This document shows, piece after piece, positions 4,125 through 55,980 of a stretch of 64,000 nucleotides of DNA (position 1 is the first letter of the stretch; each line of letters starts with the position of its first letter). The translations under genes and the position numbers were made by a program. The notes below the pieces were generated by a model. That model saw only the letters and a list, made by a program, of their open reading frames with translations, searched no databases and was not told the DNA's origin. This stretch comes from Patescibacteria group bacterium (GTDB lineage: Bacteria; Patescibacteriota; Minisyncoccia; RBG-13-40-8-A), in assembly GCA_043807255.1 (NCBI GenBank), contig JAZDGD010000007.1:17069-81068 (forward strand), written 5' to 3'.

Positions 4125-5800
4125 TTTATTTCTATTTCCTGAATTAATTTTTTAGTTGCCGGAAAAGTTAATTTTTCCATCGCTTCTTCTTTGGTCGCCC
4201 ATTCATATTTATCATGTTCAATAATTTCCTGTTTTAAAGAAATTATTTGCTCCATGTCGGCTTTAACCAAAAACGTATCCGCAATAACATAATTAATTCC
4301 ATCCGCTTGCCATTCTTCTTTCTTCCCTAGTTTTTTAATTACTTTAAATTTTTTAATTTGAGTTTCTTCTGCAATGCCTCTCTTTATCGTTTTTAATGGC
4401 GTTTCTCCCGGCTCAACGGTTTCTTTTAAAAATTCCCAACCATTCCATCTTAAAATTCTGTGAAGAATCAAAAAATACGGTTTATCATCTTTAACGTCGT
4501 ATATAATAGCTCTATACTTTTTTATTCCATCCCCGCCCCCGCCAACATCTGATGAAGTTGTGGCGGGTGGCGGGCCCGCCTGAATGCCCTCTGGGCTTTC
4601 GGCGAGCTTGTCGGCTTCTATCATTTTTTCACTCTTAACATCTATTTTCCAGCCCGTTAGTTTTGCGGCCAATCTTACGTTCTGTCCACGTTGTCCAATT
4701 GCTAAAGAAATTTGATCTTCGGGGACAATTACTGTTGCGCTTCTGTCTTTTTCTTCAGTTTTCACGCTAATAATTTTAGCAGGCGACAATGCATTGGCGA
4801 TATATTTCTCCATATTTTCATTCCACTCAATGATGTCAATTTTCTCTCCACCCAATTCAGCAATCACTGTTTGTACCCTGCTTCCTTTTTGTCCAACACA
4901 AGAACCAACTGGATCAACCCCTTGCTCTTCTGTAAAAACTGCAATCTTTGTTCTTGAGCCAGGCTCTCGAGCGATGGATTTTATTTGCACCGTTCCCGTT
5001 GAAATTTCTGGAACCTCAATAGAAAATAATCTGCTCACTAATTTTGGATAAGCGCGAGACAAAACAATATCAGCACCTTTTGAAGATTTTTCAACTTTCA
5101 AAATATAAACTCTCAAACGTTGACCGATAAAAAATCTTTCCCCGGGGATTTGCTCTTCGGCGTATAAAATTCCTGATGCCTTACCGATGTCCATAAAAAT
5201 ATTTCTGCCTTCAATCCTTTGTACTATCGCGCTCACGACTTCACCTTCTTTGTCTTTATACTCCGCAAACACAACCTCTCTTTCGGCTTCTCTTAATCTT
5301 TGAATAATAACTTGTTTTGCGGTTTGGGCAGCGATTCTTCCGAAATCGGTATGAGCCTCGAGTTTAGTTTGGATTTCATCTCCTGGCTTTGACCCTTTTT
5401 TAATTTTTTGTGCGTCATCAACCATCACATGTTTGAAGGGATTGAAACGAACTTTCTTGTTGCCTTCTGCATCAATTTCTTCGTCGTCCTCAAACTCTTC
5501 CCCGCCCCCACCAACATCTGATGAAGTTGTGGCGGGTGGCGGGCCCGCCTGAATGCCCTCTGGGCTTTCGGCGGGTTCTTCCTTTAACATACTTTCATCC
5601 ACAACCAAAAATACCTGGAAAACTTTTATTTCTCCAGTATTTAAATCGAACTTGACCTTAATATTCTGACCTTTCTTGCCATAGTCCTTCTTGTATGCAG
5701 CGGCAATCGCCATCTCAAGGGTTTCAATAATTTGTTCTTGAGAAATGCCTTTTTCTTCGGCAATTTGACTCATTGCTGATATAAATTGTTTTTGATCCAT
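4121..5800 (-). CDS. nusA: transcription factor NusA (NTD-S1-KH1-KH2) fused to a C-terminal NUDIX (MutT-like) domain. Contains two in-frame copies of a 76-bp GC-rich repeat
   Basis: Recognised parts are the NusA NTD (ISQIAEEKGIS, FGRIAAQTAKQVIIQRLREAERE), the S1 and two KH domains (IGQRGQNVRLAAKLTGWKIDV). The C-terminal 130 aa carry a Nudix box (WEFLKETVEPGETPLKTIKRGIAEETQI) that aligns position by position with the MutT box [30 protein letters not shown]. The peptide AESPEGIQAGPPPATTSSDVGGGG occurs twice. Confidence 0.85.
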   Translation of the reverse strand: MDQKQFISAMSQIAEEKGISQEQIIETLEMAIAAAYKKDYGKKGQNIKVKFDLNTGEIKVFQVFLVVDESMLKEEPAESPEGIQAGPPPATTSSDVGGGGEEFEDDEEIDAEGNKKVRFNPFKHVMVDDAQKIKKGSKPGDEIQTKLEAHTDFGRIAAQTAKQVIIQRLREAEREVVFAEYKDKEGEVVSAIVQRIEGRNIFMDIGKASGILYAEEQIPGERFFIGQRLRVYILKVEKSSKGADIVLSRAYPKLVSRLFSIEVPEISTGTVQIKSIAREPGSRTKIAVFTEEQGVDPVGSCVGQKGSRVQTVIAELGGEKIDIIEWNENMEKYIANALSPAKIISVKTEEKDRSATVIVPEDQISLAIGQRGQNVRLAAKLTGWKIDVKSEKMIEADKLAESPEGIQAGPPPATTSSDVGGGGDGIKKYRAIIYDVKDDKPYFLILHRILRWNGWEFLKETVEPGETPLKTIKRGIAEETQIKKFKVIKKLGKKEEWQADGINYVIADTFLVKADMEQIISLKQEIIEHDKYEWATKEEAMEKLTFPATKKLIQEIEIK

Positions 5801-6282: not shown

Positions 6283-6407
6283 AATTTTTATAAATTTATT
6301 TTATACTGAGACAATCTCGGAAGCTGACCGCAGTCGGCTGAGAGTTAGTGCGATTTTGTAGTGGCAAAATCGACACGTGTCGACATATAAAATAAATTTA
6401 TAAAAAA

Positions 6408-7256
6408 TTAATTATTTTCGTTTAATCTTTCAGCGATTTCTTCTGCCTCATTAAAACCGTCCTCTGTGCCAATGTCGGTCCAAAGACCGGTATGCACATA
6501 GGCCAATAATTGGTTCTTTTTCGCCAATTCTGGGAAAACCTCGTCTTCTATTCTAAATGCTTCTGTTTTTTTCTTTGATTTCAAATGTTTAATTTTAAAA
6601 ACTTCTGGCGATAAAATATAAAATCCGGCATTTACATAACCAGCATATTGATAATCGGGGTCTTGTGAGAAGTCCACCACCTTCTCATTTTTTGTTTTAA
6701 CTAATCCTAAACCATTAACATTTTGGTCATAATATACTGCCATCGCGCCTAAATTTTCTTGATAAGAAACCCTTTTCCTGAAAGGCGAAACTTTTAATGG
6801 TAAAATCCTGGGAGTAATGTTTTTAATAAATTGCGATGACGCAAAAAACCTGGGTTGGGAAATATTTTTTTTATAAAAATCAACATAATCATTTAAATTA
6901 ATATTGGTTAGGGTGTCGCCATTAATAACCATAAAGTCCTTTTTAAGATTTTTGGCTACCAATTTAATTGCTCCACCAGTTCCTAATGCTTTCGAATCAA
7001 TAACATATTCAATGCCAGCAACTTTACCTTGTTTTTTAGAAATGTCTGCTTTGGGATCTTTTGTTTTTAAATATTCCAAAATTTTATCTGCGCCAAAATA
7101 TAAACTTAAACAAATATCATTAAATTTGTATTTTTTTAATAAGTCTAACTGATATTCAATCAAAGGCTTCCCTTTTATTTGAATCAACGATTTAGGCGTA
7201 TTTTTCAATTTTCCTGGCAGATTGGTTTTCCCGCCCGCCAAAATTATCACTTTCAT
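6408..7256 (-). CDS. sugar-phosphate nucleotidyltransferase (NTP_transferase family)
   Basis: N-terminal ILAGGK..L...PK.L G-loop-like motif and GTGGAI. Confidence 0.65.
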   Translation of the reverse strand: MKVIILAGGKTNLPGKLKNTPKSLIQIKGKPLIEYQLDLLKKYKFNDICLSLYFGADKILEYLKTKDPKADISKKQGKVAGIEYVIDSKALGTGGAIKLVAKNLKKDFMVINGDTLTNINLNDYVDFYKKNISQPRFFASSQFIKNITPRILPLKVSPFRKRVSYQENLGAMAVYYDQNVNGLGLVKTKNEKVVDFSQDPDYQYAGYVNAGFYILSPEVFKIKHLKSKKKTEAFRIEDEVFPELAKKNQLLAYVHTGLWTDIGTEDGFNEAEEIAERLNENN

Positions 7257-7318
7257 ATTTTTTGTTTAATCCTTAATCAATATAATAGTTTAGCGCGTTG
7301 AAATCAAATGTCAAGAGT

Positions 7319-7343
7319 TAAAAAAATCCCCAAAGGGGAAAAT
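7319..7343 (-). terminator. intrinsic terminator-like hairpin (minus-oriented) inside the divergent 7257-7545 intergenic region
   Basis: The minus strand reads TTTTCCCCTTTGGGGATTTTTTT. Confidence 0.4.
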
Positions 7344-7545
7344 GTTATACGAGAACAAACCCGTTTTTGAAAGGTTTATTCCTGTTGGACTTCGTTCGCA
7401 CATATTCAATTTTTATTTACTTCCGCCCATAACGGAACCTCCTTAATTCTTACAATAATTATTACGTGGGGGGTAAATATTTATTTCATTTAATTTTTCG
7501 TCTTTACTCTGTCAGAAAATTCTGATATTATTGTAATAAACTAAT

Positions 7546-18101: not shown

Positions 18102-19094
18102 ATGCTACTAAAAAGCAGGCGGAATTTTTATTTATCCAAAATTGAAATGCTTACGAACAAATTAACCCCATATTTACAAAAATTAACCAAAACTTGCCCA
18201 GCAATCAAGCGCCAATTTGTTTACTCAAAACAAGAAAATTTATCTAAAAATAAAGATAAAAAATCAACATTTATTGACCCATTAATGGAGGAGAAATATA
18301 CTGTTGTGCGTGGGTTGATTCACAAATATGATAATCGTGCCCTGATCTTATTAACCCTAAATTGTGCTGCCTATTGTAGATTTTGTACTAGACGCAGAAA
18401 GGTTTCTGATATAAAAAATGGCCTATTATCAGACGAGGACATAAACAATATTGTCGCTTACATTAAAAAACATTCTGAGATTAAAGAAATTATCCTTTCC
18501 GGCGGAGATCCGTTAACCGTGCCCGTTCTATTACAAAAATTATTATTAAAACTTTCTAAACTTTCGCAAATCAAAATTATTAGAATTGGTACTCGTTTGC
18601 CTGTCGCTGACCCTCAAAAAATAAATTCAAAACTAATTAATATTTTAAAAGTCATAAAAAATAAAACTGTATACATTTTAATTCATTTTGAGCATCCCAA
18701 AGAAATTACCAAACAAACAATTATTGCTGTAAACAAATTAAAACAAGTTTCAACAATGCTTTTATCTCAATCGGTATTTTTAAAAAATGTTAATGATTCA
18801 TTTGATACGCTCTATGAACTTTTTTCTCAGTTAATTGAAATTGAGGTTAAGCCATACTATTTATATCATTGTGATCCAGTTAAGGGCGCTGAGCATTTTA
18901 TTGTTGATTTCAAAAAAGAAATAAAAATTGTTACCGAATTACGAAAAGAATTAAGTGGATTAGCATTTCCAACATATATTATTGATGCACCCAACGGTGC
19001 AGGCAAAATTCCTGTACCCCTGGAATTCTGGAAATTCGATTCAGACAAATACAAAGATTTTAACGGCAAAATCTTACGAGGTTTAACCTCGTAA
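18102..19094 (+). CDS. KamA-family radical SAM protein (lysine 2,3-aminomutase / EpmB-like)
   Basis: CAAYCRFC (CxxxCxxC) and SGGDPL. The size matches EpmB. Confidence 0.75.
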   Translation: MLLKSRRNFYLSKIEMLTNKLTPYLQKLTKTCPAIKRQFVYSKQENLSKNKDKKSTFIDPLMEEKYTVVRGLIHKYDNRALILLTLNCAAYCRFCTRRRKVSDIKNGLLSDEDINNIVAYIKKHSEIKEIILSGGDPLTVPVLLQKLLLKLSKLSQIKIIRIGTRLPVADPQKINSKLINILKVIKNKTVYILIHFEHPKEITKQTIIAVNKLKQVSTMLLSQSVFLKNVNDSFDTLYELFSQLIEIEVKPYYLYHCDPVKGAEHFIVDFKKEIKIVTELRKELSGLAFPTYIIDAPNGAGKIPVPLEFWKFDSDKYKDFNGKILRGLTS

Positions 19095-20956: not shown

Positions 20957-21334
20957 ATGAATATTAGAAAAATATTATCAATAATCATTATTGTGGGTTT
21001 TGCGCTTGTGTTATTATTGGCCGTCATTTCAAAAGAAAGCCCGCAAGAACAAGAACTGATTTCGGGTTTGTTTTTTTATGTTTGTCTGGGGGTTGCGATT
21101 TCGACAGCTTTTTTGGTACTCTCGTTATTGTTCCCTTTTCGCACTGACATTGAAAATCAAAAACCCAAGAGCGTTTTTAGGAAAATTATAATTTTTGTTC
21201 TTGGATTAATATTTACAGTAATAACTGCCATAGCCTCATTTTTTATACTGCTTTTTCTCGGGGCCATTAGTGGCATTTTTAGTATTGGATCAGGCACCTA
21301 TGGCACCCCGATATATAGACCAAAAATAAATTAA
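20957..21334 (+). CDS. small four-TM membrane protein with a Gly/Ser-rich C-terminal tail. It ends 3 nt before the radical SAM gene
   Basis: Hydrophobicity profile; tail GAISGIFSIGSGTYGTPIYRPKIN. Confidence 0.5.
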   Translation: MNIRKILSIIIIVGFALVLLLAVISKESPQEQELISGLFFYVCLGVAISTAFLVLSLLFPFRTDIENQKPKSVFRKIIIFVLGLIFTVITAIASFFILLFLGAISGIFSIGSGTYGTPIYRPKIN

Positions 21335-21337
21335 ACT

Positions 21338-22696
21338 ATGGAAATTATTGATTCCATCGCAGATAAAATTTTGGGTGATTTTAAAAAAGAGATACCTATC
21401 GTGGGGCGATATTCTACGAGAAAAGAAAAGAGAGGGTATGCTCTTTTTTTTAATGACAGCCTAAGAATCGTTTTCCTTAGTGATATGGGTTACTATTTTA
21501 TAAAAGAAATAGATGGAATGAAAAACTGTGATCAAGTAGCAAGAGCTGTTGCAAGTTCATTAAAATTTCCTTATTTGGTTTCTTGTAGGCTGTTGATCAA
21601 ATGTTTAAATCATTTTTCTTCGCTTGAAATTGTTTCGTTGAAAACCACAAAAACCACAAAAGTTAAATTAAAAAATTTAGGAAATTTTATTCCATCAGCG
21701 CCAAACCAAATAGCTATTCTTTTAACAAACGAGTGTAATTTGCGCTGTTCTCATTGTGGCAACGAAAATAGAGATCGAAAAGAAAATGAATTGTCGAAAG
21801 AAGAGTGGTTCAAGATTATAGACGAATGTTCGAAAATTGGCGTGTTTATTTTCAATGTTTCTGGTGGCGAACCATTTATTAGAAAAGATTGGTATGAAGT
21901 ACTGTCCTATGCCCGTTCAAAGAAAATAGAAGTTGCAATTACCAGCAACTCAACGCTTATTAATGAAGATGTAGCAGAAAAATTAAAAGAACTAAAGATT
22001 TTTAATATACATTTGAGTGTAGACGGGGTTGGCGAAATTCATGATCATTTTAGAAATCAAAAAGGTGTCTTTGAGAAAGTAGTTAATGCAATAGATTTAT
22101 TAAAAAAATACAAAATCCCATTCGGCATTACAACGGCGGTTTCAAAGAGAAACTTTAGCGATTTGGACAAATTGGTTGAATTTGTTAGAAGTAATAATAT
22201 CTCCTCTTGGGAAATTTACTCCGCAATACCTCTGGGGTGTATGAATAAATTAGAAGCGTTAAGCCAGTCAGAAACGTTAGAATTTGCAAGAAAGATATCC
22301 GATTTTAGAAAAAATCTAAAGGATACAAAAATTTTTGTTGGCGACAATTTGGGATATTTCGACCAATACAATATGCAAGAAGATTGGAGGGGTTGCAGGG
22401 CGGGAATTAGTATTTGCGCGATTGATTCCGAAGGCAATGTCAAGGGTTGTCCCATACATCCCAATTCTTTAATACAGGGGAATCTTAGAAGCAGAACGTT
22501 AAGCGATATATGGAACGACAAGAAATCATTTGGATATAATCGTAATGCTAAATCGAAACTAAAAGAACACTGTAAAAATTGTCGATTTTCAAAAGTTTGC
22601 CGAGGCGGATGCAAGGCTTCAATGTATTCTCAACACAAGAATTTCGAACACAATGACTACTGTTTAAAGTTCATTGAGGAAAGCAGAACTATTTAA
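21338..22696 (+). CDS. radical SAM/SPASM-domain peptide-modifying enzyme with an N-terminal PqqD-like (RRE-like) extension
   Basis: CNLRCSHC cluster, GGEPF, and a C-terminal Cys-rich SPASM region (CRAGISIC ... CKNCRFSKVCRGGCKA). The N-terminal ~110 aa include YFIKEIDGMKNCDQVARAV, which resembles PqqD. Confidence 0.75.
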   Translation: MEIIDSIADKILGDFKKEIPIVGRYSTRKEKRGYALFFNDSLRIVFLSDMGYYFIKEIDGMKNCDQVARAVASSLKFPYLVSCRLLIKCLNHFSSLEIVSLKTTKTTKVKLKNLGNFIPSAPNQIAILLTNECNLRCSHCGNENRDRKENELSKEEWFKIIDECSKIGVFIFNVSGGEPFIRKDWYEVLSYARSKKIEVAITSNSTLINEDVAEKLKELKIFNIHLSVDGVGEIHDHFRNQKGVFEKVVNAIDLLKKYKIPFGITTAVSKRNFSDLDKLVEFVRSNNISSWEIYSAIPLGCMNKLEALSQSETLEFARKISDFRKNLKDTKIFVGDNLGYFDQYNMQEDWRGCRAGISICAIDSEGNVKGCPIHPNSLIQGNLRSRTLSDIWNDKKSFGYNRNAKSKLKEHCKNCRFSKVCRGGCKASMYSQHKNFEHNDYCLKFIEESRTI

Positions 22697-23474
22697 TCAA
22701 AAAATTTTCTATAATTCTAACAATTTTGGGTGCTTCTGTTTTTAAAAATTTGTGTTTTTTGTTCTCAATAATCTTTATTTCGGCGGTTTTTAATCTTGCA
22801 AAAAGATTTTTTGTTTTTTCTGAAAGCGTTTTGTCGTTTTTTCCATAAATTATCAACAGCGGAATTTTTAAATTCTCTAGTCCCAACGCTCCTTCGTAAT
22901 TTTTTAAAGAATAGACAGACCCCAAAAGATCCTTTGTGTTGATACATTTCAAGACATATCTCGTATCGTGGAAATTTGGATTCTCGTAATTTTTTAATTT
23001 AGAATAATTTAGTTTGAATTTCTTATTGGGAACTAAACATCGCCATACAATCCCAACAAAATCAAAGATGAGTTTTTCAAAAAAATTATTTTCTCCTTTA
23101 AAGTAGGGACTAACAAAGATCATAGACTTTATCTTCTCTTGCATTTTTTCTTTTATTAATAGACTGATATGACACGAAAAAGAATACGAAATTATAGAAA
23201 CGGACCCTATTTCTAATTGATTTAAGATTTTTACAATTTTCTCTGCCTGATTTGAAAATGAATATTCGTCTATGGTTTTTGGAGAACCGGAATTACCGTG
23301 CCCAACCAAATCAATGAGAATAATGTTAAATTTATCTTTAAGCGTTTCAACGTAATCGTCCCATACTGACGAGGTCCCTGTGAATCCATGCAAAAACAGC
23401 AAAGTATGATTTTCTTTGCTGTTTTTTAAATATCTATAAAAGATATTTTCAGATTTCTGTTCTATAATTTCCAT
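22689..23474 (-). CDS. alpha/beta hydrolase fold protein
   Basis: LFLHGFTGTS ... HGNSG. Confidence 0.6.
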   Translation of the reverse strand: MEIIEQKSENIFYRYLKNSKENHTLLFLHGFTGTSSVWDDYVETLKDKFNIILIDLVGHGNSGSPKTIDEYSFSNQAEKIVKILNQLEIGSVSIISYSFSCHISLLIKEKMQEKIKSMIFVSPYFKGENNFFEKLIFDFVGIVWRCLVPNKKFKLNYSKLKNYENPNFHDTRYVLKCINTKDLLGSVYSLKNYEGALGLENLKIPLLIIYGKNDKTLSEKTKNLFARLKTAEIKIIENKKHKFLKTEAPKIVRIIENFLIK

Positions 23475-23580: not shown

Positions 23581-24474
23581 GTGACTAATCTTAAAAAGGT
23601 TTATTGTAAAAATTGTAAAAAGCCAATTTATCGAAGCATCGGTCGATTCCATGAAAATTTAAAATTCGGATGGAATTTTTATTGTTCTCCAAAATGTTTA
23701 AGCCAAGACAAAACAAAGAAACAAGAATTAGTATGTGAAAATTGTGGCAAAACTATCAGGCGAACACCTTGTGCAATCTCTCCGCACAATTATTGTTCTC
23801 GATCTTGCGCTATGATAGAAAACAATAAGACAAGACCCAGTAAACCAACCCAATTCAAGATTTGCATAAATTGTAAGAAAAAATTCAAAAAAAGTAGTGG
23901 AAATTCAAAATATTGTTCTATGAAATGCCGAACAGAAGCAGAAAGTCATACTCCCGAACAGCTTATAAGTATTATAACTCAATTGGCACAAAAATTGAAA
24001 AGAACCCCTGCGCGACGCGAAATAGAAAGAATAATTAAGCCGTGCATAAGAATTTTTGGCTCATGGAATAAGGCTGTTCAATCCGCTGGATTAATTCCAA
24101 ATCGTTCGCACAATAATCGAATGTATAAACGCGTTAATGCAAAAGCCATAGATGGTCATTTATGCGATTCTGTCTCGGAACTTTTAATTGATAACTGGTT
24201 TTACAGGAATAATATTTTACACGAAAGAGATGCACATTATCCCGACACACATCACAAGGCAGACTGGAAAATATTCACAAAAAACAAATATGTTTTCGTA
24301 GAATATTTTGGTTTGGCCAATGATGGCCCAAGATATGATCGCTCAATAAAGGAGAAAAAGGTGCTTTGCAAAAAACATAAGATTTCTTTAATTGGAATTT
24401 ATCCGAAAGATATTTATCCTAAAATTCATTTAGAAAATAATCTTAAAAATAAATTCAAGCGTTTTTTAAATTAA
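23581..24474 (+). CDS. triple zinc-ribbon protein with a C-terminal endonuclease-like (DUF559/Vsr-like) domain
   Basis: Three repeats of C.NC.K...CS..C, followed by HERDAHYP...DWKI...VFVEYFG. Confidence 0.4.
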   Translation: MTNLKKVYCKNCKKPIYRSIGRFHENLKFGWNFYCSPKCLSQDKTKKQELVCENCGKTIRRTPCAISPHNYCSRSCAMIENNKTRPSKPTQFKICINCKKKFKKSSGNSKYCSMKCRTEAESHTPEQLISIITQLAQKLKRTPARREIERIIKPCIRIFGSWNKAVQSAGLIPNRSHNNRMYKRVNAKAIDGHLCDSVSELLIDNWFYRNNILHERDAHYPDTHHKADWKIFTKNKYVFVEYFGLANDGPRYDRSIKEKKVLCKKHKISLIGIYPKDIYPKIHLENNLKNKFKRFLN

Positions 24475-24479
24475 TATTG

Positions 24480-24552
24480 TCAGAGCGGAGAGACTTGCAC
24501 TCTCAGTTTCCGACTCCCGAAGCCGGCGTCTTAGCTGTTAGACCACGCCCTG
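24480..24552 (-). tRNA. tRNA-Pro (anticodon CGG), no encoded CCA
   Basis: Hand-folded cloverleaf. Acceptor CAGGGCG/CGCTCTG, anticodon loop TTCGGGA (G37), T-arm GAGAG-TGCAAGT-CTCTC. Confidence 0.75.
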
Positions 24553-24556
24553 GTGG

Positions 24557-26935
24557 TTATTTTTTCTTTTTTAATATTTTTTCTAATTCTTGTTTATCTA
24601 AAACCCAAAAATTATCTTGTTCTTTTGAATTTATATCATAAAAAACTTTTCCTCTAATTTTGAATCCGGAATTTTTCAATACACCCTCTGAAAGTAGATT
24701 CTTGGGATTTGTGAAAGCCACAATTGTGGTTTCTTCTGATTTTTCCAAAAGAGAAAATCCAATTTGTCTAATAGCGCTTGGAATATGTCCTCTTCCTTTG
24801 TTTTCTTCTGGCAAATTCTCATCAAGAAGTCGTGCAAAACTTATTTCTAAAATCTTTGAGTTTCCAGACAAATCAATCAACCTGCTTTCTTTCAAATTAG
24901 TAATTGTGTCTTCTTCTAATTCATAGAGCCAAACAAATCCCTCCATTAGCCCTTTTTCTTTTTCTCCACAAACGCCATAAAATTGTTTTTTAAACATTTT
25001 CTTAATTTCTTCTGTGGTGGATAATTCTTCTGCGTCGTCCATCCATTTTTTTATTATTGGTTGATCCTCGATGCGTTTATATGCATCAATATCGTTTGGA
25101 TTATTCGAGTCTGGTTTTTTTATCCATGCCGATTCTTGCTCAAAAATTTTCACCGGCCCTTCCTTCGGGCTCTTAGGCAATTTACAATCTGCAACCAGGT
25201 CTTCTTCCGTCTCGTCGATTCCTTTTATAAAATTTGATACCCTCTTAACTATCTTGTTCGGTTTACAATTATTTTTTACCCATTTATCGGCTTTTTGGGG
25301 ATTCATTGTTTCGTCCCGATAGAGTTTTAAGACTTCTTTTGATAATTCTTCGTTTATTTTATAAAAAGCATCAACATCGGTTATTGTTGCAGCCCCAGTT
25401 TTAAAATCAAAAACAACAATTCCTTGTTCAAATAATTTATTTAAAGTATAGACAGCAGCATAATAATATTCATCTCCTTCTGGTTTGTCAAAAAGTTCTT
25501 CTAACGAATTTTCTAAAGCCGCAGAAGCCCACTCCTCTTCTGTGCCCTCTATTGCGCCCGCCTTAATCAATTCGGGCAAAAATTGTCGGTAGAATTGTTC
25601 TGCCTTTACTTCATTAATAATCAATCCAGGATCCGCTCCCAATCTTTTTGCTCCCGGGTCACCATCTTTATGAAAGTGACAAAATTCGTGAAACGATGTA
25701 ACAAAAAAGGACATTCTTAAACTGTAAGGTTTTTCGGTATTTCCGATTTTAAAATTCTTTTTTCCCGCCAATGAATTCTGCAACTTTCTCTGTTCTGCAA
25801 GAAAAACCATACCAACCGATTCTCCCATTTGAGCAGTTGTTTTCATCGCTAAACCAGCACCATAGTCCCCAATAGAGTTAACAACTGTAAATTTTTTCTC
25901 TATAACATTTTTCGCCAATTCGGCGTGACCCATTTCTTTAAGTTGCCGAGAAATCACTTCCTGACACATAGAAAGATTTTTTTCCTCCTCCGGAGATCTC
26001 AACGTAATCTTTATCTCTGGATCGAAATACGGTGGTTTAAAATACCCCCCCGTGTATTCCGTTGGAACTATTAAAATTGGGAAGTCAGAAAAAGTTGATT
26101 GTTTATACAATTCGCTTACTGCTCGATAACATTCATCGGTCTTATTTACATCTTTTTCGCGATAGGATTCACTCAGAGCTATTAGATATTTTTGAAAAAT
26201 TTCTCCGCCAGGAAATTTTTTCCATTCAACCGACATTTCGCTAATTTCTTTGAATTTTCTAAAGAGATATTGGGCGTCTTTATCAAATAATTCATTGATT
26301 GTATGTGCTGTTTCGTCTCCAGGCAGATAGAATTTGGTTGACAACGATCCTTCTTTCGGTTTCGGCGATAGTCTTGAAAAGGCGAGAAAACGGATAAAGA
26401 GATTGTCCGCGCGCATCGAAGCGTCGAGAAGTTTTGTGGTGACGTCGCGTAGCTCTGAATTCAGTCCTAATTTTTCAAGATCTTTTTCTTCGGCACAATT
26501 AATAACTTCTTGATAAGCCCTTGTCTCCATATGTTTTATGACATGCCCGGCGACAGCTAATAAAACCTCTCTTCTTTGTCCTTGTATCTCCGGAATTCCT
26601 TCTGGCCAATTATTGACGATCGTATCGATAATTTCTTCTCGAGGAAGATCCTGTATAGATGAAACCTTCCCTTGGAATGCATCGACTTTAGTTTGTATTT
26701 GTTCTAAAACGACTCTTTGAACGTTTTCAAAAAGTTCTAGGGAATTTTCCCAAGGACCAACTTTTTCTGGTAAATCTTTTTTCCATTCAGTATAGCCGTC
26801 CAACAGTCCCAATGTTTTATAAATATCCTTCAATCCGGGTTCAGAATCGATTAATTTTTCTTGTTTAATTTTTGGTTTTGGCTCTCCGCTTTCTCTCATA
26901 ATTATTTTACTCCGCCGTTGGCGGGGTGAATCCAA
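24557..26935 (-). CDS. large hypothetical protein with an HExxH motif (HEFCHFH); possible M3-like zinc metallopeptidase
   Basis: HEFCH, with a Glu about 27 residues downstream. Confidence 0.4.
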   Translation of the reverse strand: MDSPRQRRSKIIMRESGEPKPKIKQEKLIDSEPGLKDIYKTLGLLDGYTEWKKDLPEKVGPWENSLELFENVQRVVLEQIQTKVDAFQGKVSSIQDLPREEIIDTIVNNWPEGIPEIQGQRREVLLAVAGHVIKHMETRAYQEVINCAEEKDLEKLGLNSELRDVTTKLLDASMRADNLFIRFLAFSRLSPKPKEGSLSTKFYLPGDETAHTINELFDKDAQYLFRKFKEISEMSVEWKKFPGGEIFQKYLIALSESYREKDVNKTDECYRAVSELYKQSTFSDFPILIVPTEYTGGYFKPPYFDPEIKITLRSPEEEKNLSMCQEVISRQLKEMGHAELAKNVIEKKFTVVNSIGDYGAGLAMKTTAQMGESVGMVFLAEQRKLQNSLAGKKNFKIGNTEKPYSLRMSFFVTSFHEFCHFHKDGDPGAKRLGADPGLIINEVKAEQFYRQFLPELIKAGAIEGTEEEWASAALENSLEELFDKPEGDEYYYAAVYTLNKLFEQGIVVFDFKTGAATITDVDAFYKINEELSKEVLKLYRDETMNPQKADKWVKNNCKPNKIVKRVSNFIKGIDETEEDLVADCKLPKSPKEGPVKIFEQESAWIKKPDSNNPNDIDAYKRIEDQPIIKKWMDDAEELSTTEEIKKMFKKQFYGVCGEKEKGLMEGFVWLYELEEDTITNLKESRLIDLSGNSKILEISFARLLDENLPEENKGRGHIPSAIRQIGFSLLEKSEETTIVAFTNPKNLLSEGVLKNSGFKIRGKVFYDINSKEQDNFWVLDKQELEKILKKKK

Positions 26936-28793
26936 TATTTTTCCATTCTTTGTCCATTTCCTCGAATCTTTCTCTTTTTTCGAAAATAAATTTTTGTATC
27001 TTCTTTTTTAATTCTTCTAAATGATATTCGAATTGGGGATTGCCATGCGACCCCGCCTTGTGTGCTGCTTCATGAAAATATAAATCTATGACATCTAAAA
27101 AATCTTTGCCAAAATCTTCTTGGGCGATCCAATAAAATAAATCATTGTATTGTCCGGAGAAAATGCTGTTTTCGTCTTTTATATTAAAAAGCCAAATATC
27201 TTTAATGTCGCTTTCGTCGAGACCAATCTCTTTTGCTACTCCTTTTAAATACTCTATTTTTTCGTTTTCTTTTTCGGAGGCTTCTATTTTTGTGTGATTT
27301 TGCAGTTCTTTAAATTTTTCTATAACTCCTTTCATTCCAATTTTCGCCATAAAATCAGGACAAATTTTATATCCTTGAGATTTTAATAAATCAATAATCC
27401 AATTTGGCATTCTGTCTCTTGCTAAAAATTCTTTTTCGAAATTAAATTTTATTTTTTCTTTCGATGCTTTTTCGGCCATCATTTCAAGTAGACTACAACC
27501 TTCTTGTGCCCCGGACATTTCCGGCCAAAGTGATTTAAAGTCATAAATTGATTTTTCTAGGTCTTTTTTGTCCATTGCATCAACGATAAGGGGAAGAACC
27601 TCTTCTTTTAGTTCCCAATAAGTTACCATGCCACGATCGCGATCGGCGCTAGCATCTTTTAGAATCTTTTTCCACGTCCAAATATTTACATCATAAACGG
27701 TGTTCCATTTTTCTCTTTCTCTGCAACTTATTCTTTGACCGGCGTGATAAAAATTTCCCTTAAATCTGCGTTCCCAACTATAATTTCCTTTTTCATTAAT
27801 CGGCAATATTTTAAATCCACCAACATCTGGATCGTTAAAGCTTGGCTCTTGGAAATCCTCGTTTTCTTTGGAATAAAAAAGTTCTCTGGCATCTGTTATC
27901 GCTTGTGCCTCTTCTTTGCTTTTTTCTCCATGGAAAACAATTTCCAATTTATTTCCTTTGATTGGTTTTTCTGTCTTATATTTCTTGATAAAAAGTCCTC
28001 TTAATTCTTTGTCGCGTTTGTCTTTTGCTAGTTGATCTTTTGGAATGTTATCTAAATAAAATTCTAATTCCCAATCATCACAAGCAAATTTTATGTCTGC
28101 ATCGAAATCTCTAAGCATTGTAAGCGAAAGCATTTTTGTTCCTTCGCCAAATCCTCCAGCAGCACGTTCTTTATCTGGCTTGTCGCTAATGCCCGTGTGT
28201 CGCAGAGTGCGCCAATCATAATTGGCATCTCCGTTGATTATCACTTTTGACTTCGGATCTTTTTCGTTATCGTCACTTTCAACAAAAAATTCAATTCCAT
28301 CCAAGGTGCCACCATTGGCATCAAAAAAATTCTGCCAAGAATCGCAAGCCGCTTTTTCTAAACTCCATTCAACGCCATAATCTTCAGCGTATCCAGTGTA
28401 AAAACCTTTTTCTATTTGTTTCTCAAAACTCGTTTTTTCAAAATCTTTTGTCAATATTTTTAATACATTTTTTTCGATATCTGATTTTACATCTAAAAAC
28501 GTTATTTTTCTTAACGTTTCTTCGCCAAGAGATTTTTCAATCAACTTAGAAATTTCTAATGGGTAATTTTCTCCGCTGGCATCCTTTAGTGTTTTTTTTA
28601 CTTCCTTCGCGGATTCAAATCTTTCTGGATTACGATTAAAAAGTTCTTTTGCTATCAAGTCTAGTGTTTTGGGAGATCTTTGTAATGCCTTAAAAACGCC
28701 CATTAATTGTTTTGGCTTTTCTTCTATGTTTTCCTTTTCCTCTTTTTTTTTGTTACCAGATAGCCCTTCGAAAATCTTTGAAAATTTTGACAT
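26907..28793 (-). CDS. large hypothetical protein with a C-terminal HExxH (HEAAH)
   Basis: ORF plus motif only. Confidence 0.4.
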   Translation of the reverse strand: MSKFSKIFEGLSGNKKKEEKENIEEKPKQLMGVFKALQRSPKTLDLIAKELFNRNPERFESAKEVKKTLKDASGENYPLEISKLIEKSLGEETLRKITFLDVKSDIEKNVLKILTKDFEKTSFEKQIEKGFYTGYAEDYGVEWSLEKAACDSWQNFFDANGGTLDGIEFFVESDDNEKDPKSKVIINGDANYDWRTLRHTGISDKPDKERAAGGFGEGTKMLSLTMLRDFDADIKFACDDWELEFYLDNIPKDQLAKDKRDKELRGLFIKKYKTEKPIKGNKLEIVFHGEKSKEEAQAITDARELFYSKENEDFQEPSFNDPDVGGFKILPINEKGNYSWERRFKGNFYHAGQRISCREREKWNTVYDVNIWTWKKILKDASADRDRGMVTYWELKEEVLPLIVDAMDKKDLEKSIYDFKSLWPEMSGAQEGCSLLEMMAEKASKEKIKFNFEKEFLARDRMPNWIIDLLKSQGYKICPDFMAKIGMKGVIEKFKELQNHTKIEASEKENEKIEYLKGVAKEIGLDESDIKDIWLFNIKDENSIFSGQYNDLFYWIAQEDFGKDFLDVIDLYFHEAAHKAGSHGNPQFEYHLEELKKKIQKFIFEKRERFEEMDKEWKNIGFTPPTAE

Positions 28794-53043: not shown

Positions 53044-55980
53044 ATGCTCAACAAATTTCAAAAAATAATAATTTCTTCCATTATATTTTGTTTAATTTTT
53101 GGTTTTGTTTTTAATATATTTCTTACCAGACCAAAAATAGTACAAGCAACTGACGGAGGTGCTGGTTTTTTAAATTTAATGAAAGAGACAGTACTTGACG
53201 CTGTCGGTTGGGGAGTTACGGATATGGTATTGAAACCATTAAAACAAAAAATACAGGATTGGGGGATGGGCAAAACAAGCGATAGCAACACACCATTCTT
53301 TGTTATGGATTGGAAAAAGTTTTGGGACGACGCATTAGATATTGCTTCAGCAAAATTTATAGAAGAACTGGGAGCGACAAAGCTTTGCGGACCATTACAA
53401 ATAAGCATTGGTCAAAATCCAACATTTACTACATATTATAGTGACAAACCACAATACAAAAACTATTCTGCTTGCACGCTTGATAATGTTGTGGATAATG
53501 TTGAGTCGTTTTTTAAAAATCCATCAATTTCTGTTTATGGCTGGGACGCATGGACAGCATTAACTCAACCGAATAATAATTTTTTGGGTGCGTATCTGAT
53601 GGCAGCGCAAAGACAAGATGAATTGGCACAGGAAGAACTTGATGCCAAAAACAAAGAAACCGCAGTAAGCGAGGGGACTAAAAATGAAACAACAACTAAG
53701 GCAACGGACACTGATACTTGTAATAAAAAATGTGATACTGATTTCCCAACCACAACTCCTGGCAACGACATAAAATGGAATGATTGTCTCGACAAGTGCG
53801 AGACAACAACAAAAGGCGTTCCAACACAAAGCGGGGTTAAGAATCTCGGAGCAACAATCAAAGAGAATATGGACAAGGCCCTGGGAGCAGATATGAGCAG
53901 AATCATTAGTGCAGACGAAATCAGTGAACTTGTGGGAGTGTTTTTTAGCGCTGTTTTAAACAAAGCTATTGATGGATTAGGACTAGTCCCATCTTCTGCT
54001 AACCAAACAACCCAAGAACAGAATCGAAACGAAAATAAAGATCTTTACGGATACGGAACATCGGTAGGGCAAACAATTACCCCTGAAATGCAAAAAGACA
54101 TCCGCACTACTATTTTAAATGGCACACTTAAGGGAGTACAAATGATATCGAGAGCAACAGCAAAATGTAAAGATGAAAAAACGATGCTTACTGAATTAGA
54201 TTTCAATAAAAACATTACTGACATGTATTCGGCACAATTAGAAGCATTGTATGTCGGAACAACCGGAATTGCCTTAAAGCCCGACTTTACAGTATTAGAC
54301 TCTCCATTCGCTCCGTTTTCTCTATACGGTTATCGTTGGGGAGAAATTCCTGTAAACAAGATACCAGCTAAGTGCAAAAAGATGATCACTCAGTCAAGCG
54401 GAGGATTAACCGCTTCCTGCAAAGATATTGTTAGCGGTCTTGAGCCAAATTACAGTAAACAATGCACTCAATGTATTTATGATGATAGCGAATTAAATTG
54501 TCCACCTGCACCATATCCGCCATTTTCAAAACCATCCGTATTAACAAAAGCAGTGGTTACTGCCAAACAAGAATTTTATAGTGGTTGTATGAACTGGTAT
54601 GAAGTAACAACCAATAGATGTAAAGAATGTGTGAAAAAGACAGATGAAAAATGCGATCAGGAAGATGGCGCTCAAAAACAAGCATGCATTGAAAGCGTCT
54701 GCAGTAATTACGAAGACCTGAAACCACATGTTGTCTCTACAATAAGCAGTGGCATTGATTTCCATAGTAAGTGTTTGCTTGAAGAAACAAAAACATCTTG
54801 TTTCACCTGCCTTAAAGAATATTTTATGCCTGCGTCATACTGCGATGATATGAGTGCATTTACTGCGCGCGCATTAATAAAATATCCTGGCGTGGTATTG
54901 ATGGGTGACGCCAGAACCAGTGCATATTTTATAGGGAGATACGATTCAACGTTTGCCGATGCATTTGAGGGTGGCACAAAATGTAATAACGATCGAGACG
55001 CAAAGAAAGCAATAGACGTAAGTTTGATTTGTCAAATTATGCCCGACTTTGAAGACAACGGCATAAAGGTCTGTAAACAATATTGTATGGGGCACGGTAT
55101 GACTGAAGCAGAATTAAACGATATTGTGGACAATCGACCAACAAATGAAGATTGTAACAATCAAAAATTAAACATCGGCGGAAGTATAAATGTTTGGAAT
55201 ACTGTTAGCAATGGGAATTTTCAACAATTAAGTAAATGTTGCGCAGCAACAAATACAACAGATCTAAAGAGATACCAAACTTGTATTGGGGGATCAAAAC
55301 CATTGGTAGATGTTCCCCCTGTGTCCCCTTGCACGTTTGCTAAGCCAGTCAATCAAGAACCAGAATGTTATTGTAATGACGGCGAAAGACCGTTGGGATG
55401 GGCTAAGGCAAAAGTTTTTCCAGAATATACCAATGAATCGGATATAAGTTTTTGTACAGATTTCGAATTTCAATCACCTGGCACAAAACGATTAAGAATA
55501 TATACTGACAGCACTCCTGGCGGAGCGGTCGTTTATATCGGCAAAGACAGCTGTACGTATAATGGTACATACAAATTACAAGAACCAACTTCTACTGCTT
55601 GCCCGCCAAGCAACCCATTATTTATGGCCGAGACTTCTTTTGGAACGAATTCACAAGAATTTTATTATAACTTATCAGACACAGGCACGTTGCATGGCGG
55701 AGTATTTAATAATGACTTAACCGACACAAAAGCGACCACAATGCACGTATGCGCTCCCTGTGACCCATCAGATACAGGATATCCCAACTATGGAACAAGC
55801 TTGAATCAATGTTCGGGCAAATTAAGTAGCACTTCTGGAAGCGAAGGGTCTTATGTCCCACCAATCATGCCTGGGGACTGTTCATATACTCCACCAGGAG
55901 GAATGCCATCGTGCCCGAAAGATAAATACAATAGATGCATCCCGCCCCAAGATGATGATCCGATGTGTGAATGCAGATAA
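53044..55980 (+). CDS. large (978 aa) Cys-rich secreted or surface protein, hypothetical
   Basis: N-terminal TM or signal; many Cys. Confidence 0.45.
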   Translation: MLNKFQKIIISSIIFCLIFGFVFNIFLTRPKIVQATDGGAGFLNLMKETVLDAVGWGVTDMVLKPLKQKIQDWGMGKTSDSNTPFFVMDWKKFWDDALDIASAKFIEELGATKLCGPLQISIGQNPTFTTYYSDKPQYKNYSACTLDNVVDNVESFFKNPSISVYGWDAWTALTQPNNNFLGAYLMAAQRQDELAQEELDAKNKETAVSEGTKNETTTKATDTDTCNKKCDTDFPTTTPGNDIKWNDCLDKCETTTKGVPTQSGVKNLGATIKENMDKALGADMSRIISADEISELVGVFFSAVLNKAIDGLGLVPSSANQTTQEQNRNENKDLYGYGTSVGQTITPEMQKDIRTTILNGTLKGVQMISRATAKCKDEKTMLTELDFNKNITDMYSAQLEALYVGTTGIALKPDFTVLDSPFAPFSLYGYRWGEIPVNKIPAKCKKMITQSSGGLTASCKDIVSGLEPNYSKQCTQCIYDDSELNCPPAPYPPFSKPSVLTKAVVTAKQEFYSGCMNWYEVTTNRCKECVKKTDEKCDQEDGAQKQACIESVCSNYEDLKPHVVSTISSGIDFHSKCLLEETKTSCFTCLKEYFMPASYCDDMSAFTARALIKYPGVVLMGDARTSAYFIGRYDSTFADAFEGGTKCNNDRDAKKAIDVSLICQIMPDFEDNGIKVCKQYCMGHGMTEAELNDIVDNRPTNEDCNNQKLNIGGSINVWNTVSNGNFQQLSKCCAATNTTDLKRYQTCIGGSKPLVDVPPVSPCTFAKPVNQEPECYCNDGERPLGWAKAKVFPEYTNESDISFCTDFEFQSPGTKRLRIYTDSTPGGAVVYIGKDSCTYNGTYKLQEPTSTACPPSNPLFMAETSFGTNSQEFYYNLSDTGTLHGGVFNNDLTDTKATTMHVCAPCDPSDTGYPNYGTSLNQCSGKLSSTSGSEGSYVPPIMPGDCSYTPPGGMPSCPKDKYNRCIPPQDDDPMCECR

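Follow-up and report, generated by a model that had tools for sequence, protein, structure and literature searches.

The stretch of DNA analysed here, hereafter called the window, comprises 64,000 nucleotides of contig JAZDGD010000007.1 of a Patescibacteria group bacterium and contains two adjacent genes on its forward strand, the first encoding a small membrane protein and the second a radical S-adenosylmethionine (SAM) enzyme with a SPASM domain (Table 1). In a first-pass annotation the two were considered a candidate pair for peptide modification resembling that of peptides which the ribosome makes and which are modified after translation (RiPPs). Both open reading frames (ORFs) were found where they had been placed, and the tail of the membrane protein indeed ends 3 nt before the enzyme start: the letters ACT separate the stop codon TAA (21332-21334) from the enzyme ATG at 21338. 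The results presented below support a cassette in which an enzyme with a fused RiPP recognition element (RRE) is paired with a fixed C-terminal tag on interchangeable membrane anchors.

Table 1. Features of the two-gene cassette and the adjoining gene; positions are those of the window
Feature	Position	Strand	Basis
Predicted precursor (substrate) gene, 125-aa membrane protein with three (possibly four) hydrophobic spans, Gly/Ser-rich spacer and conserved C-terminal tail	20957..21334	+	
Putative core motif T-Y-G-T-P-I-Y-R-P-K-I-N, residues 114-125, proposed modification site	21296..21331	+	Tail alignment, position counts
Whole enzyme gene, 452 aa (predicted RRE, radical SAM core, SPASM)	21338..22696	+	ORF, Pfam/NCBIfam, alignment, AlphaFold2
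Predicted PqqD-type RRE, enzyme residues 1-100; low-confidence linker to about residue 120	21338..21637	+	AlphaFold2, Foldseek, profile search
Radical SAM cluster motif C133-x3-C137-x2-C140	21734..21757	+	Pfam, alignment
SPASM domain, seven invariant Cys (C353, C371, C412, C415, C421, C425, C442)	22394..22663	+	Pfam, alignment
Alpha/beta hydrolase, 261 aa, convergent; 3' end overlaps enzyme gene by 8 nt	22689..23474	-	Pfam Abhydrolase_1

The first gene product was confirmed as a membrane protein, but the four transmembrane spans assigned to it earlier are doubtful, as Kyte-Doolittle hydropathy gives three, of which the third is unusually long. Its orthologue at locus L001 has three clear hydrophobic spans. 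In direct scans the protein matched no Pfam or NCBIfam family, and only sub-threshold noise was returned. The Gly/Ser/Tyr tail described earlier is present, but its Gly/Ser stretch is a lineage-specific spacer, and the conserved part consists of the last 12 residues, TYGTPIYRPKIN. The absence of a small leader-peptide gene also held when shorter ORFs were scanned, since no alternative small precursor was found among ORFs of at least 30 aa between 17 and 27 kb of the window.

The flanks of related enzyme genes were read on ~20 distinct contigs, bacterial and archaeal, and in every readable locus a tail-bearing gene directly adjoined the enzyme gene (the window, L001/L002, L003, L004/L005, L007, L009, L010, L011 with two copies, L012, L016, L017, L018 with two copies, L095, L096, L097, L098 with two copies, L103, L104, and L105). 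The precursor gene is mostly upstream and either overlaps the enzyme gene or is separated from it by 0-25 nt; it lies downstream in L011, and there is one on each side of the enzyme in L018. The genes surrounding the pair differ in every locus. When the pattern [YFW]G.P.[HYFW]RP was searched in six frames of the window and 94 loci, only the C-termini of membrane proteins adjoining full-length family enzymes were matched, and the motif occurred nowhere else in the ~700 kb of related DNA examined. A reverse search from the tail alignment retrieved 16 more small proteins, all ending ...KYGTPHYRPKVE or similar, and for the two of them with long contigs the enzyme was found 2 nt downstream. The co-occurrence of the pair, suggested earlier as a check, was therefore confirmed in every readable locus from the enzyme side as well as from the precursor side, and the pairing is far beyond chance.

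Residues were counted in 31 distinct precursor tails at 17 positions numbered from the Tyr (4 before to 12 after it), and the consensus was X-Y-G-(T/V/A)-P-x-(Y/H/F)-R-P-(K/R)-hydrophobic-x-COOH. Tyr (position 0), Gly (+1), Pro (+3), and Arg (+6) were present in 31/31 tails, and a second Pro (+7) in 30/31. Position -1 was occupied by K (16), T (7), H (3), M (3), or L (2), position +2 by T (25), V (4), or A (2), position +5 by Y (27) or H (4), with F in L105, and position +8 by K (21), R (4), or other residues (6); position +4 is variable, +9 hydrophobic, and +10 any residue, followed by the C-terminus. The Tyr lies exactly 10 residues from the C-terminus in 25 of the 31 tails, and the tails end 9-13 residues past it. 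Three further tails from divergent loci, read later, again kept Y, G, P, and R, and in all tails together the residue X before Y-G is K/T/H/M/L/A.

Outside the last ~12 residues the partner proteins are unrelated and have from one to five or more hydrophobic spans. They include one-span proteins of ~40-56 aa (L009, L010, L016, L017, L096, L097, L098, and L103-L105), three-span proteins (the window, L001, and L018), five-span proteins of ~170-190 aa (L004 and L007), and, at 320 aa, a protein that has both a signal peptide and an ectodomain (L012). Because an invariant motif occurs on otherwise unrelated partners and is absent elsewhere in the related DNA, the tail would be the core peptide and the membrane part an interchangeable anchor. 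The first-pass annotation had left the choice between a membrane-protein tail and a precursor encoded in trans; the tail is preferred and the precursor in trans is not, because the conserved element is the membrane protein's own tail. The two genes very probably represent an enzyme and its tail substrate, and the candidate RiPP-like pair is supported by the RRE described below, the strict pairing, and the conservation of the tail, from which we infer the modification itself. Two precursors per locus, in tandem or flanking the enzyme and with different membrane parts but nearly identical tails, were observed at L098 (4681-4999), L011 (~6400-7350), and L018 (3673-3981 and ~5450-5700); P0124/P0136 and P0127/P0132 are likewise such double precursors. 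A LemA-family gene is located just upstream in both L010 and L098.

Membership of the second gene product in the radical SAM superfamily was judged by a CxxxCxxC motif together with a match to Pfam Radical_SAM (PF04055), which covers residues 128-283 (E 3e-29; 102.7 bits, cut-off 29.5). The SPASM domain was judged by the pattern Cx9-15Gx4C ... Cx2Cx5Cx3C ... C together with a match to PF13186 (residues 353-415; E 5e-8; 33.5 bits, cut-off 21.5), and its cysteines are arranged as C353-x12-G-x4-C371, C412-x2-C415-x5-C421-x3-C425, and C442. The cluster motif and the seven-Cys SPASM domain read earlier from the sequence were thus both found, and their ten cysteines (three of the radical SAM motif and seven of SPASM) are invariant across 44 homologues. 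The SPASM domain is expected to bind two auxiliary 4Fe-4S clusters, and C301, which is kept in at least 90% of the 44 homologues, is likely the eighth ligand of these clusters. An AlphaFold2 model of the whole enzyme, built from the 44-sequence alignment, had a predicted local distance difference test (pLDDT) score of 89.4. Its best Foldseek match was SuiB (E 1e-21, 461 columns, TM 0.71), followed by SkfB, CteB, anSME, and PqqE, and the family profile aligned SuiB over residues 23-433 and CteB from residue 39, i.e., through both RREs. About 47 clusters share the full architecture including the N-terminal extension.

This N-terminal extension of ~120 residues is conserved among the homologues, and ~110 residues of it had been likened to RREs in the first-pass annotation. 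The secondary structure predicted by AlphaFold2 consists of a helix (2-15), three strands (25-30, 33-38, and 43-47), and three further helices (49-57, 64-75, and 79-95), followed by a flexible linker; modelled alone (residues 1-118, pLDDT 87.7), the extension has a beta3-alpha3 topology. Its top Foldseek matches were the lasso-peptide RRE TbiB1 with bound leader (E 5e-3, probability 1.0, TMt 0.68), PqqD (5sxy), and the lasso peptide protein B1 (6jx3), with weaker matches (E 0.1-0.6) to further enzymes containing an RRE, namely ThcOx, TigE, SuiB, CteB, McbB, and PbtF. A profile of the extension reached PqqD 5sxy at E 0.07 in the PDB, and among 1.84 billion representatives it retrieved, after its own family, stand-alone proteins of ~90 aa and radical SAM fusions at E 1e-7 to 1e-6. 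The Pfam PqqD domain (PF05402) was present in 8 of 10 tested proteins retrieved in this way, in six of them above its cut-off. Within the family itself PF05402 matched 5 of 30 members, weakly (best E 0.0065), and the window enzyme had no match to it, which counts against the assignment. Because of the beta3-alpha3 fold and the profile searches retrieving true PqqD proteins, the first ~100 residues of the enzyme are nevertheless identified, from model and profiles, as a PqqD-type RRE, and it is an RRE and not some other domain that the extension matches. Two radical SAM/SPASM proteins retrieved by the same profile, P0158 and P0162, carry the PqqD domain at the C-terminus, which shows that SPASM lineages differ in the end to which this recognition module is fused.

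None of the NCBIfam equivalog cut-offs was reached by the enzyme, and the same picture was obtained for all 44 members. The scores were 182 bits for AhbD (cut-off 500), 171 for NirJ2 (500), 168 (167.6) for TIGR04103, the nif11-class maturase 3 (725), 153 for MftC, TIGR03962 (265), 153 for NirJ (515), 150 for TIGR03913 (592), 133 for WgkB (650), 116 for PqqE, TIGR02109 (381), 103 for PapB (340), 97 (96.9) for anSME, TIGR03942 (349), 96 for SkfB (300), and 91 for AlbA (850). A housekeeping family such as anSME or a cofactor maturase, named as an alternative in the earlier annotation, was therefore not indicated. An anSME was defined by the TIGR03942 cut-off, the substrate motif C/S-x-P/A-x-R, and the lack of an RRE; here the score is below the cut-off, the tail lacks Cys altogether and shows neither Ser nor Cys in register with P-x-R, and an RRE is predicted. 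The MftC and PqqE cut-offs were missed as well, and the tails neither end in Tyr, which speaks against a mycofactocin-like precursor (expected to end ...G-V-Y, with a separate MftB), nor contain a conserved Glu, which speaks against a PQQ-like one (expected E-x3-Y; PQQ, pyrroloquinoline quinone). The sactipeptide and ranthipeptide maturases AlbA, SkfB, CteB, and PapB were rejected on their cut-offs and on the lack of Cys at the 17 counted positions of the 31 precursors, so no sactionine or ranthionine thioether could be formed. As for the heme and heme d1 enzymes AhbD, AhbC, and NirJ, their cut-offs were not reached, and the fused RRE and the conserved partner tail argue for a peptide substrate.

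The closest sequence relatives of the enzyme (35-38% identity) are archaeal SPASM enzymes of 343 aa, which form a sister family. These outgroup proteins scored best on TIGR04103 (214-250 bits), with TIGR03913 next. They too are accompanied by membrane anchors: from one to four membrane proteins, 120-165 aa long and frequently more than one per locus, flank the enzyme, and all of them end in a short tail that includes a Tyr (L019 2322-2675; L022 3413-3961; L030 1550-1930 and 1988-2359; L032 3113-3529 and 3513-3914; L040 2741-3954 and 4975-5379; also L024, L027, L029, L031, and L069). Unlike the cassette enzyme, however, the sister enzymes have no N-terminal RRE, and their partners have a charged N-terminal cytoplasmic segment. 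The tail is also different and shorter, ...Y-(G/N/H/S)-V-(F/Y/W)-(S/D)-R, and the tails observed include ...KYNVYKR, AYHVYSR, RYGVFSR, YYGVWSRKG, and YYGVYDRKA. A class-I methyltransferase-like gene of ~430 aa often adjoins the sister pair. No description of this system was found in the literature searched.

It is proposed that the cassette enzyme acts in the cytoplasm as a radical SAM/SPASM peptide maturase, to which a PqqD-type recognition domain is fused. The RRE and the catalytic barrel would bind the tail, reductive cleavage of SAM would generate a 5'-deoxyadenosyl radical attacking the invariant Tyr-Gly site, and the two auxiliary clusters would handle the electron balance. By analogy with spliceases, the outcome may be excision of a tyramine unit at X-Y-G, with an alpha-keto-beta-amino amide left in the tail, a tentative proposal whose chance we put somewhat short of even. 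The tyramine equivalent lost in such splicing is C8H9NO. The modified tail would then stay on its anchor. In the search for a conserved protease or transporter at the loci, none was found beyond the hydrolase of the closest subgroup (group 1), and for lack of a conserved protease or exporter the tail, once modified, probably remains attached.

The hydrolase gene, which is convergent with the enzyme gene and overlaps its 3' end, was found by tblastn in the window, L095, L006, L002, L001/L015, and L003 and in no other locus; it is present in all six loci of group 1 (at least 65% enzyme identity), with 50-66% identity. It contains a candidate nucleophile elbow, S-Y-S-F-S, and is a generic esterase/lipase-like protein according to a PDB sequence search. 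The same enzyme protein (P0010) is carried on two contigs, L001 and L002; when L001 7334-8127 is compared with L002 1863-2657, the hydrolase is intact on L002 (264 aa), but on L001 the gene calls break it up into three parts (150, 35, and 43 aa), even though the tblastn alignment is continuous. This may be a pseudogene or an assembly error. As to the orientation of the tail, all multi-span partners have a Lys/Arg-rich loop before the last span, based on hydropathy and charge count, and many one-span partners have a Lys/Arg-rich N-terminus, some being ambiguous in charge balance. Because a Lys/Arg-rich segment precedes the last span, the sequences suggest that this span runs from inside to outside and that the tail is on the outer face, in which case cytoplasmic modification would precede membrane insertion.

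Spliceases are radical SAM/SPASM enzymes that cut out a tyramine unit at X-Y-G and leave an alpha-keto-beta-amino amide, and the prototype, PlpX, requires the PqqD-like protein PlpY (PMC11414181; PMC10533398; PMC11002830). A splice tag of ~10 residues suffices, even at protein termini, including C-termini (PMC10533398; PMC11414181). A conserved YG in the neighbours of PlpX-like enzymes has served as a published mining criterion, by which 27 enzyme-substrate pairs were confirmed (PMC10849128). The spliceotide systems (PlpX/PlpY/PlpA of Pleurocapsa; RhaX/RhaA and RasX/RcsX of Rheinheimera) are therefore comparable to the cassette in several respects. The enzymes are alike radical SAM/SPASM proteins; a PqqD-like element is required there as in the cassette, as a separate PlpY in the former and fused to the enzyme in the latter; and an X-Y-G site with variable X is found in both, Y-G being present in 31/31 distinct tails and at the three divergent loci. 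The PlpA-derived splice tag, ...PLYGLPI (PMC10533398, Table 1), and the window tail T-Y-G-T-P-I share Y-G-x-P-I. TIGR04103 was moreover the best-scoring peptide-maturase model and, among the top three models, the sole peptide family aligning the core and SPASM in one stretch. IPR026482, the InterPro class of PlpX, is presumably equal to TIGR04103. The first rank of TIGR04103 for the sister enzymes and the Y-G of the DUF1843 peptides that precede TIGR03913-like enzymes also favour the analogy.

Several points weigh against the splicease interpretation. By the curated model the cassette enzyme is no member of TIGR04103, its 168 bits being far below 725, and this model, with a best family-wide E of 1.4e-56, ranks level with those of AhbD and NirJ2, whose substrates are tetrapyrroles. 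The tails of the sister archaeal family have G, N, H, or S directly after the Tyr, a poor fit to a strict Y-G if the chemistry is common to both. The outward orientation of the tail is suggested by a crude positive-inside count and needs modification before membrane insertion. The likeness to spliceases was moreover drawn from curated-profile scores and the published motif. There are also differences that concern the substrate and the hosts. Spliceotide precursors are soluble Nif11/NHLP-type or other leader-core peptides, whereas the "leader" of the cassette consists of one or more membrane spans; the core of the cassette is always at the extreme C-terminus, unlike in spliceotides; and spliceotide hosts are cyanobacteria and proteobacteria, whereas the cassette occurs in bacteria of the candidate phyla radiation (CPR) and in DPANN or other archaea.

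Three other known systems share features with the cassette. SuiB, acting on SuiA in streptide formation, and CteB, the ranthipeptide enzyme, have the same N-terminal RRE, barrel, and SPASM domain with two auxiliary clusters, at ~18% sequence identity to the cassette enzyme. However, the tail contains no Trp, so that the Lys-Trp link of SuiB is impossible, and no Cys, which excludes the thioether of CteB; precursors of the SuiA and CteB type are also small, soluble, and exported by dedicated transporters, unlike the cassette anchors. In the pairs anSME/sulfatase and QhpD/QhpC, a cytoplasmic SPASM enzyme acts on a short motif of a protein (as opposed to a leader-core peptide) that is exported later, as proposed for the cassette, the modification taking place before export. 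On the other hand, anSME has no RRE, and neither the C/S-x-P-x-R motif nor Cys residues are found in the cassette tail. The third system is the GDL-motif/DUF1843 "radical SAM trio" (TIGR03913), which has a related SPASM enzyme and partner peptides with (P/M)-Y-G-V-A-I-R, resembling Y-G-T-P-x-Y-R. There, however, the Y-G is near the N-terminus of a soluble helical peptide, with no membrane anchor and no fused RRE. TIGR03913-like enzymes at L035-L041 follow DUF1843 peptides beginning ...(P/M)-Y-G-V-A-I-R. At L037 (3324-3972 and 4049-5479), and also at L035, L036, L039, and L041, two or three tandem DUF1843 peptides precede a SPASM enzyme of 476 aa, whose scores were 541 bits for TIGR03913 (cut-off 592) and 423 bits for TIGR04103; these peptides begin MG..(P/M)YGVAIR(E/D)AI and contain QGDL, and in one copy LYAAG replaces the Y-G site.

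The main rival of splicing is a Tyr cross-link formed by the same enzyme on the same tail. This could be a three-residue cyclophane at Y-G-T/V/A, in which the Tyr ring is joined to the C-beta two positions on as in triceptides, or a bond from the Tyr to Arg or to the second aromatic residue, as in streptide, ryptide, or the C-C bond of PQQ-type products. The two variants jointly are regarded as rather unlikely. The best whole-structure match was SuiB, a Lys-Trp cross-linking streptide maturase with an N-terminal RRE, but such likeness is expected of any enzyme combining RRE, radical SAM, and SPASM domains. The Y-G-(T/V/A) of the tails fits the triceptide motif aromatic-X-X, and Y-x-(V/T) is common to the cassette and the sister archaeal family (middle residue G/N/H/S), which suits aromatic-X-X better than a strict Y-G; known cyclophane motifs, however, do not need an invariant Gly, and the residue two past the Tyr may be Ala, a poor radical site. 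The second aromatic residue varies among Y, H, and F and is unlikely to be a fixed partner. MftC (153 bits), WgkB (133 bits), and PqqE (116 bits) are detectable relatives, but no cut-off of a cross-linking family was approached. WgkB is the only related curated model among the 25 families listed of the 92 matching, and no XyeB-type model is among these 25.

The tail could also be the sacrificial precursor of a redox cofactor or signal, cut out after modification like PqqA for PQQ or MftA for mycofactocin, with the group-1 hydrolase as the releasing enzyme. The SPASM relatives MftC and PqqE do use PqqD-type recognition and Tyr-containing peptides, the fixed distance from the Tyr to the C-terminus recalls C-terminal cofactor precursors, and the convergent hydrolase is strictly linked in the six group-1 loci, in bacteria and archaea. 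We nevertheless consider this improbable. Outside group 1 the pair lacks any conserved tailoring gene, be it for a peptidase, an oxidase, or another enzyme, the hydrolase resembles a generic esterase/lipase and not a peptidase, and to tie a sacrificial tail to multi-span proteins that reach 320 aa and carry an ectodomain (L012) would be wasteful. The missing Glu and terminal Tyr and the scores below the MftC and PqqE cut-offs, described above, also speak against it.

A divergent AhbD/NirJ-like or other small-molecule enzyme, with the membrane protein as an unmodified linked partner (a docking site or transporter subunit), is highly improbable even though AhbD (182 bits) and NirJ2 (171 bits) gave the top NCBIfam scores and a homologue is named "AdoMet-dependent heme synthase" in one database and "7,8-dihydro-6-hydroxymethylpterin dimethyltransferase" in another, for the scores are far under the 500-bit cut-offs, the AhbD match covers the radical SAM core only (residues 125-332), peptide recognition is what a fused PqqD-type RRE typically marks, and the sole conserved feature of the partner is its 12-residue tail, with no fold or channel. 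Most cassette loci are labelled CPR or DPANN, lineages which to our knowledge generally have no heme pathways.

The cassette was found in both bacterial and archaeal contexts. The window is bacterial, because it contains PNPase, a bacterial-type CCA/poly(A) polymerase, MacB/FtsX with an ABC ATPase and HlyD, UvrD, and a TrbL/VirB6-like protein, and L095 and L006 (labelled Peregrinibacteria) are also bacterial contexts. An enzyme identical to that of the window is on record from a Patescibacteria metagenome-assembled genome. Archaeal contexts were recognized at L003 (diphthamide synthase and deoxyhypusine synthase), L004 (PolB, FEN1, and CDC48), L099 (TFIIB and S8e), and L101 (RadA with an intein and ORC/Cdc6). 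The window enzyme and that of L003, a locus labelled Nanoarchaeota by NCBI, share 68% identity, and window positions 20957-23474 and L003 positions 1-2260 have in common the precursor tail, the enzyme, and also the convergent hydrolase (50%). This points to a recent transfer of the three-gene unit between domains, and the distribution is most simply read as joint movement of these genes between CPR bacteria and DPANN archaea.

Several features of the window around the cassette were also recorded. A KamA-like (lysine 2,3-aminomutase-like) radical SAM gene at 18102..19094 on the forward strand (TIGR00238, 225 bits, cut-off 199) was considered as a part of the cassette and rejected: an RNase J gene on the other strand intervenes, and no such gene was called at the related loci that were examined. 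At 23581-24474 (+), immediately downstream of the cassette, lies a gene for a 297-aa protein rich in CxxC pairs with the homing-endonuclease-associated HNH_repeat domain, adjoined by a tRNA-Pro(CGG) at 24479-24552 (-), which is called by ARAGORN but not by Rfam at gathering score. These two may mark the edge of mobile DNA. The ORFs at 24557-26935 (-), 26907-28793 (-), and 53044-55980 (+), of 792, 628, and 978 aa, had no Pfam match at E 0.001, and the last is directly upstream of a gene for a 718-aa protein with a weak TrbL/VirB6 match (56008-58164). Rfam returned tRNAs only over the window, and promoter and terminator scans gave fewer matches than in shuffled sequence and were therefore uninformative.

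Based on these results, the cassette is best described as an RRE-fused radical SAM/SPASM maturase with a fixed C-terminal tag on interchangeable membrane anchors, a variant for which no description was found in the literature searched (CPR/DPANN radical SAM RiPPs, membrane-anchored SPASM substrates, TIGR04103, IPR026482, and DUF1843). The usual radical SAM peptide maturases act on small soluble leader-core peptides and are accompanied by a protease/exporter set. In the cassette, an arbitrary membrane anchor takes the place of the leader, a fixed 12-residue C-terminal tag would serve as the core, and no further component appears to be needed, so that RiPP-like chemistry would be extended to integral membrane proteins. 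The sister family with its different Tyr tail suggests that a broader, unrecognized class exists. If tyramine excision is true, the tail would provide, for engineering, a compact and naturally occurring C-terminal splice tag, served by a single-polypeptide enzyme with a built-in recognition domain.

The 68% enzyme identity between a CPR bacterium and a Nanoarchaeota-labelled locus with archaeal-type genes documents a recent cross-domain exchange. It is conceivable, although doubtful, that ultra-small CPR and DPANN episymbionts share by cross-domain transfer a minimal two-gene system which places an electrophilic alpha-ketoamide made by radical SAM chemistry, or another unusual residue, on an anchor tail, displayed at the surface as a gene-encoded, membrane-tethered warhead that would block proteases of the host or of the environment or form a covalent attachment to the host cell. 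Should this be true, splicease-type modification would be seen here for the first time on an integral membrane protein and for the first time in archaea. For CPR and DPANN organisms, whose surface biology and contacts with hosts are little understood, the cassette offers a concrete candidate post-translational modification that can be tested.

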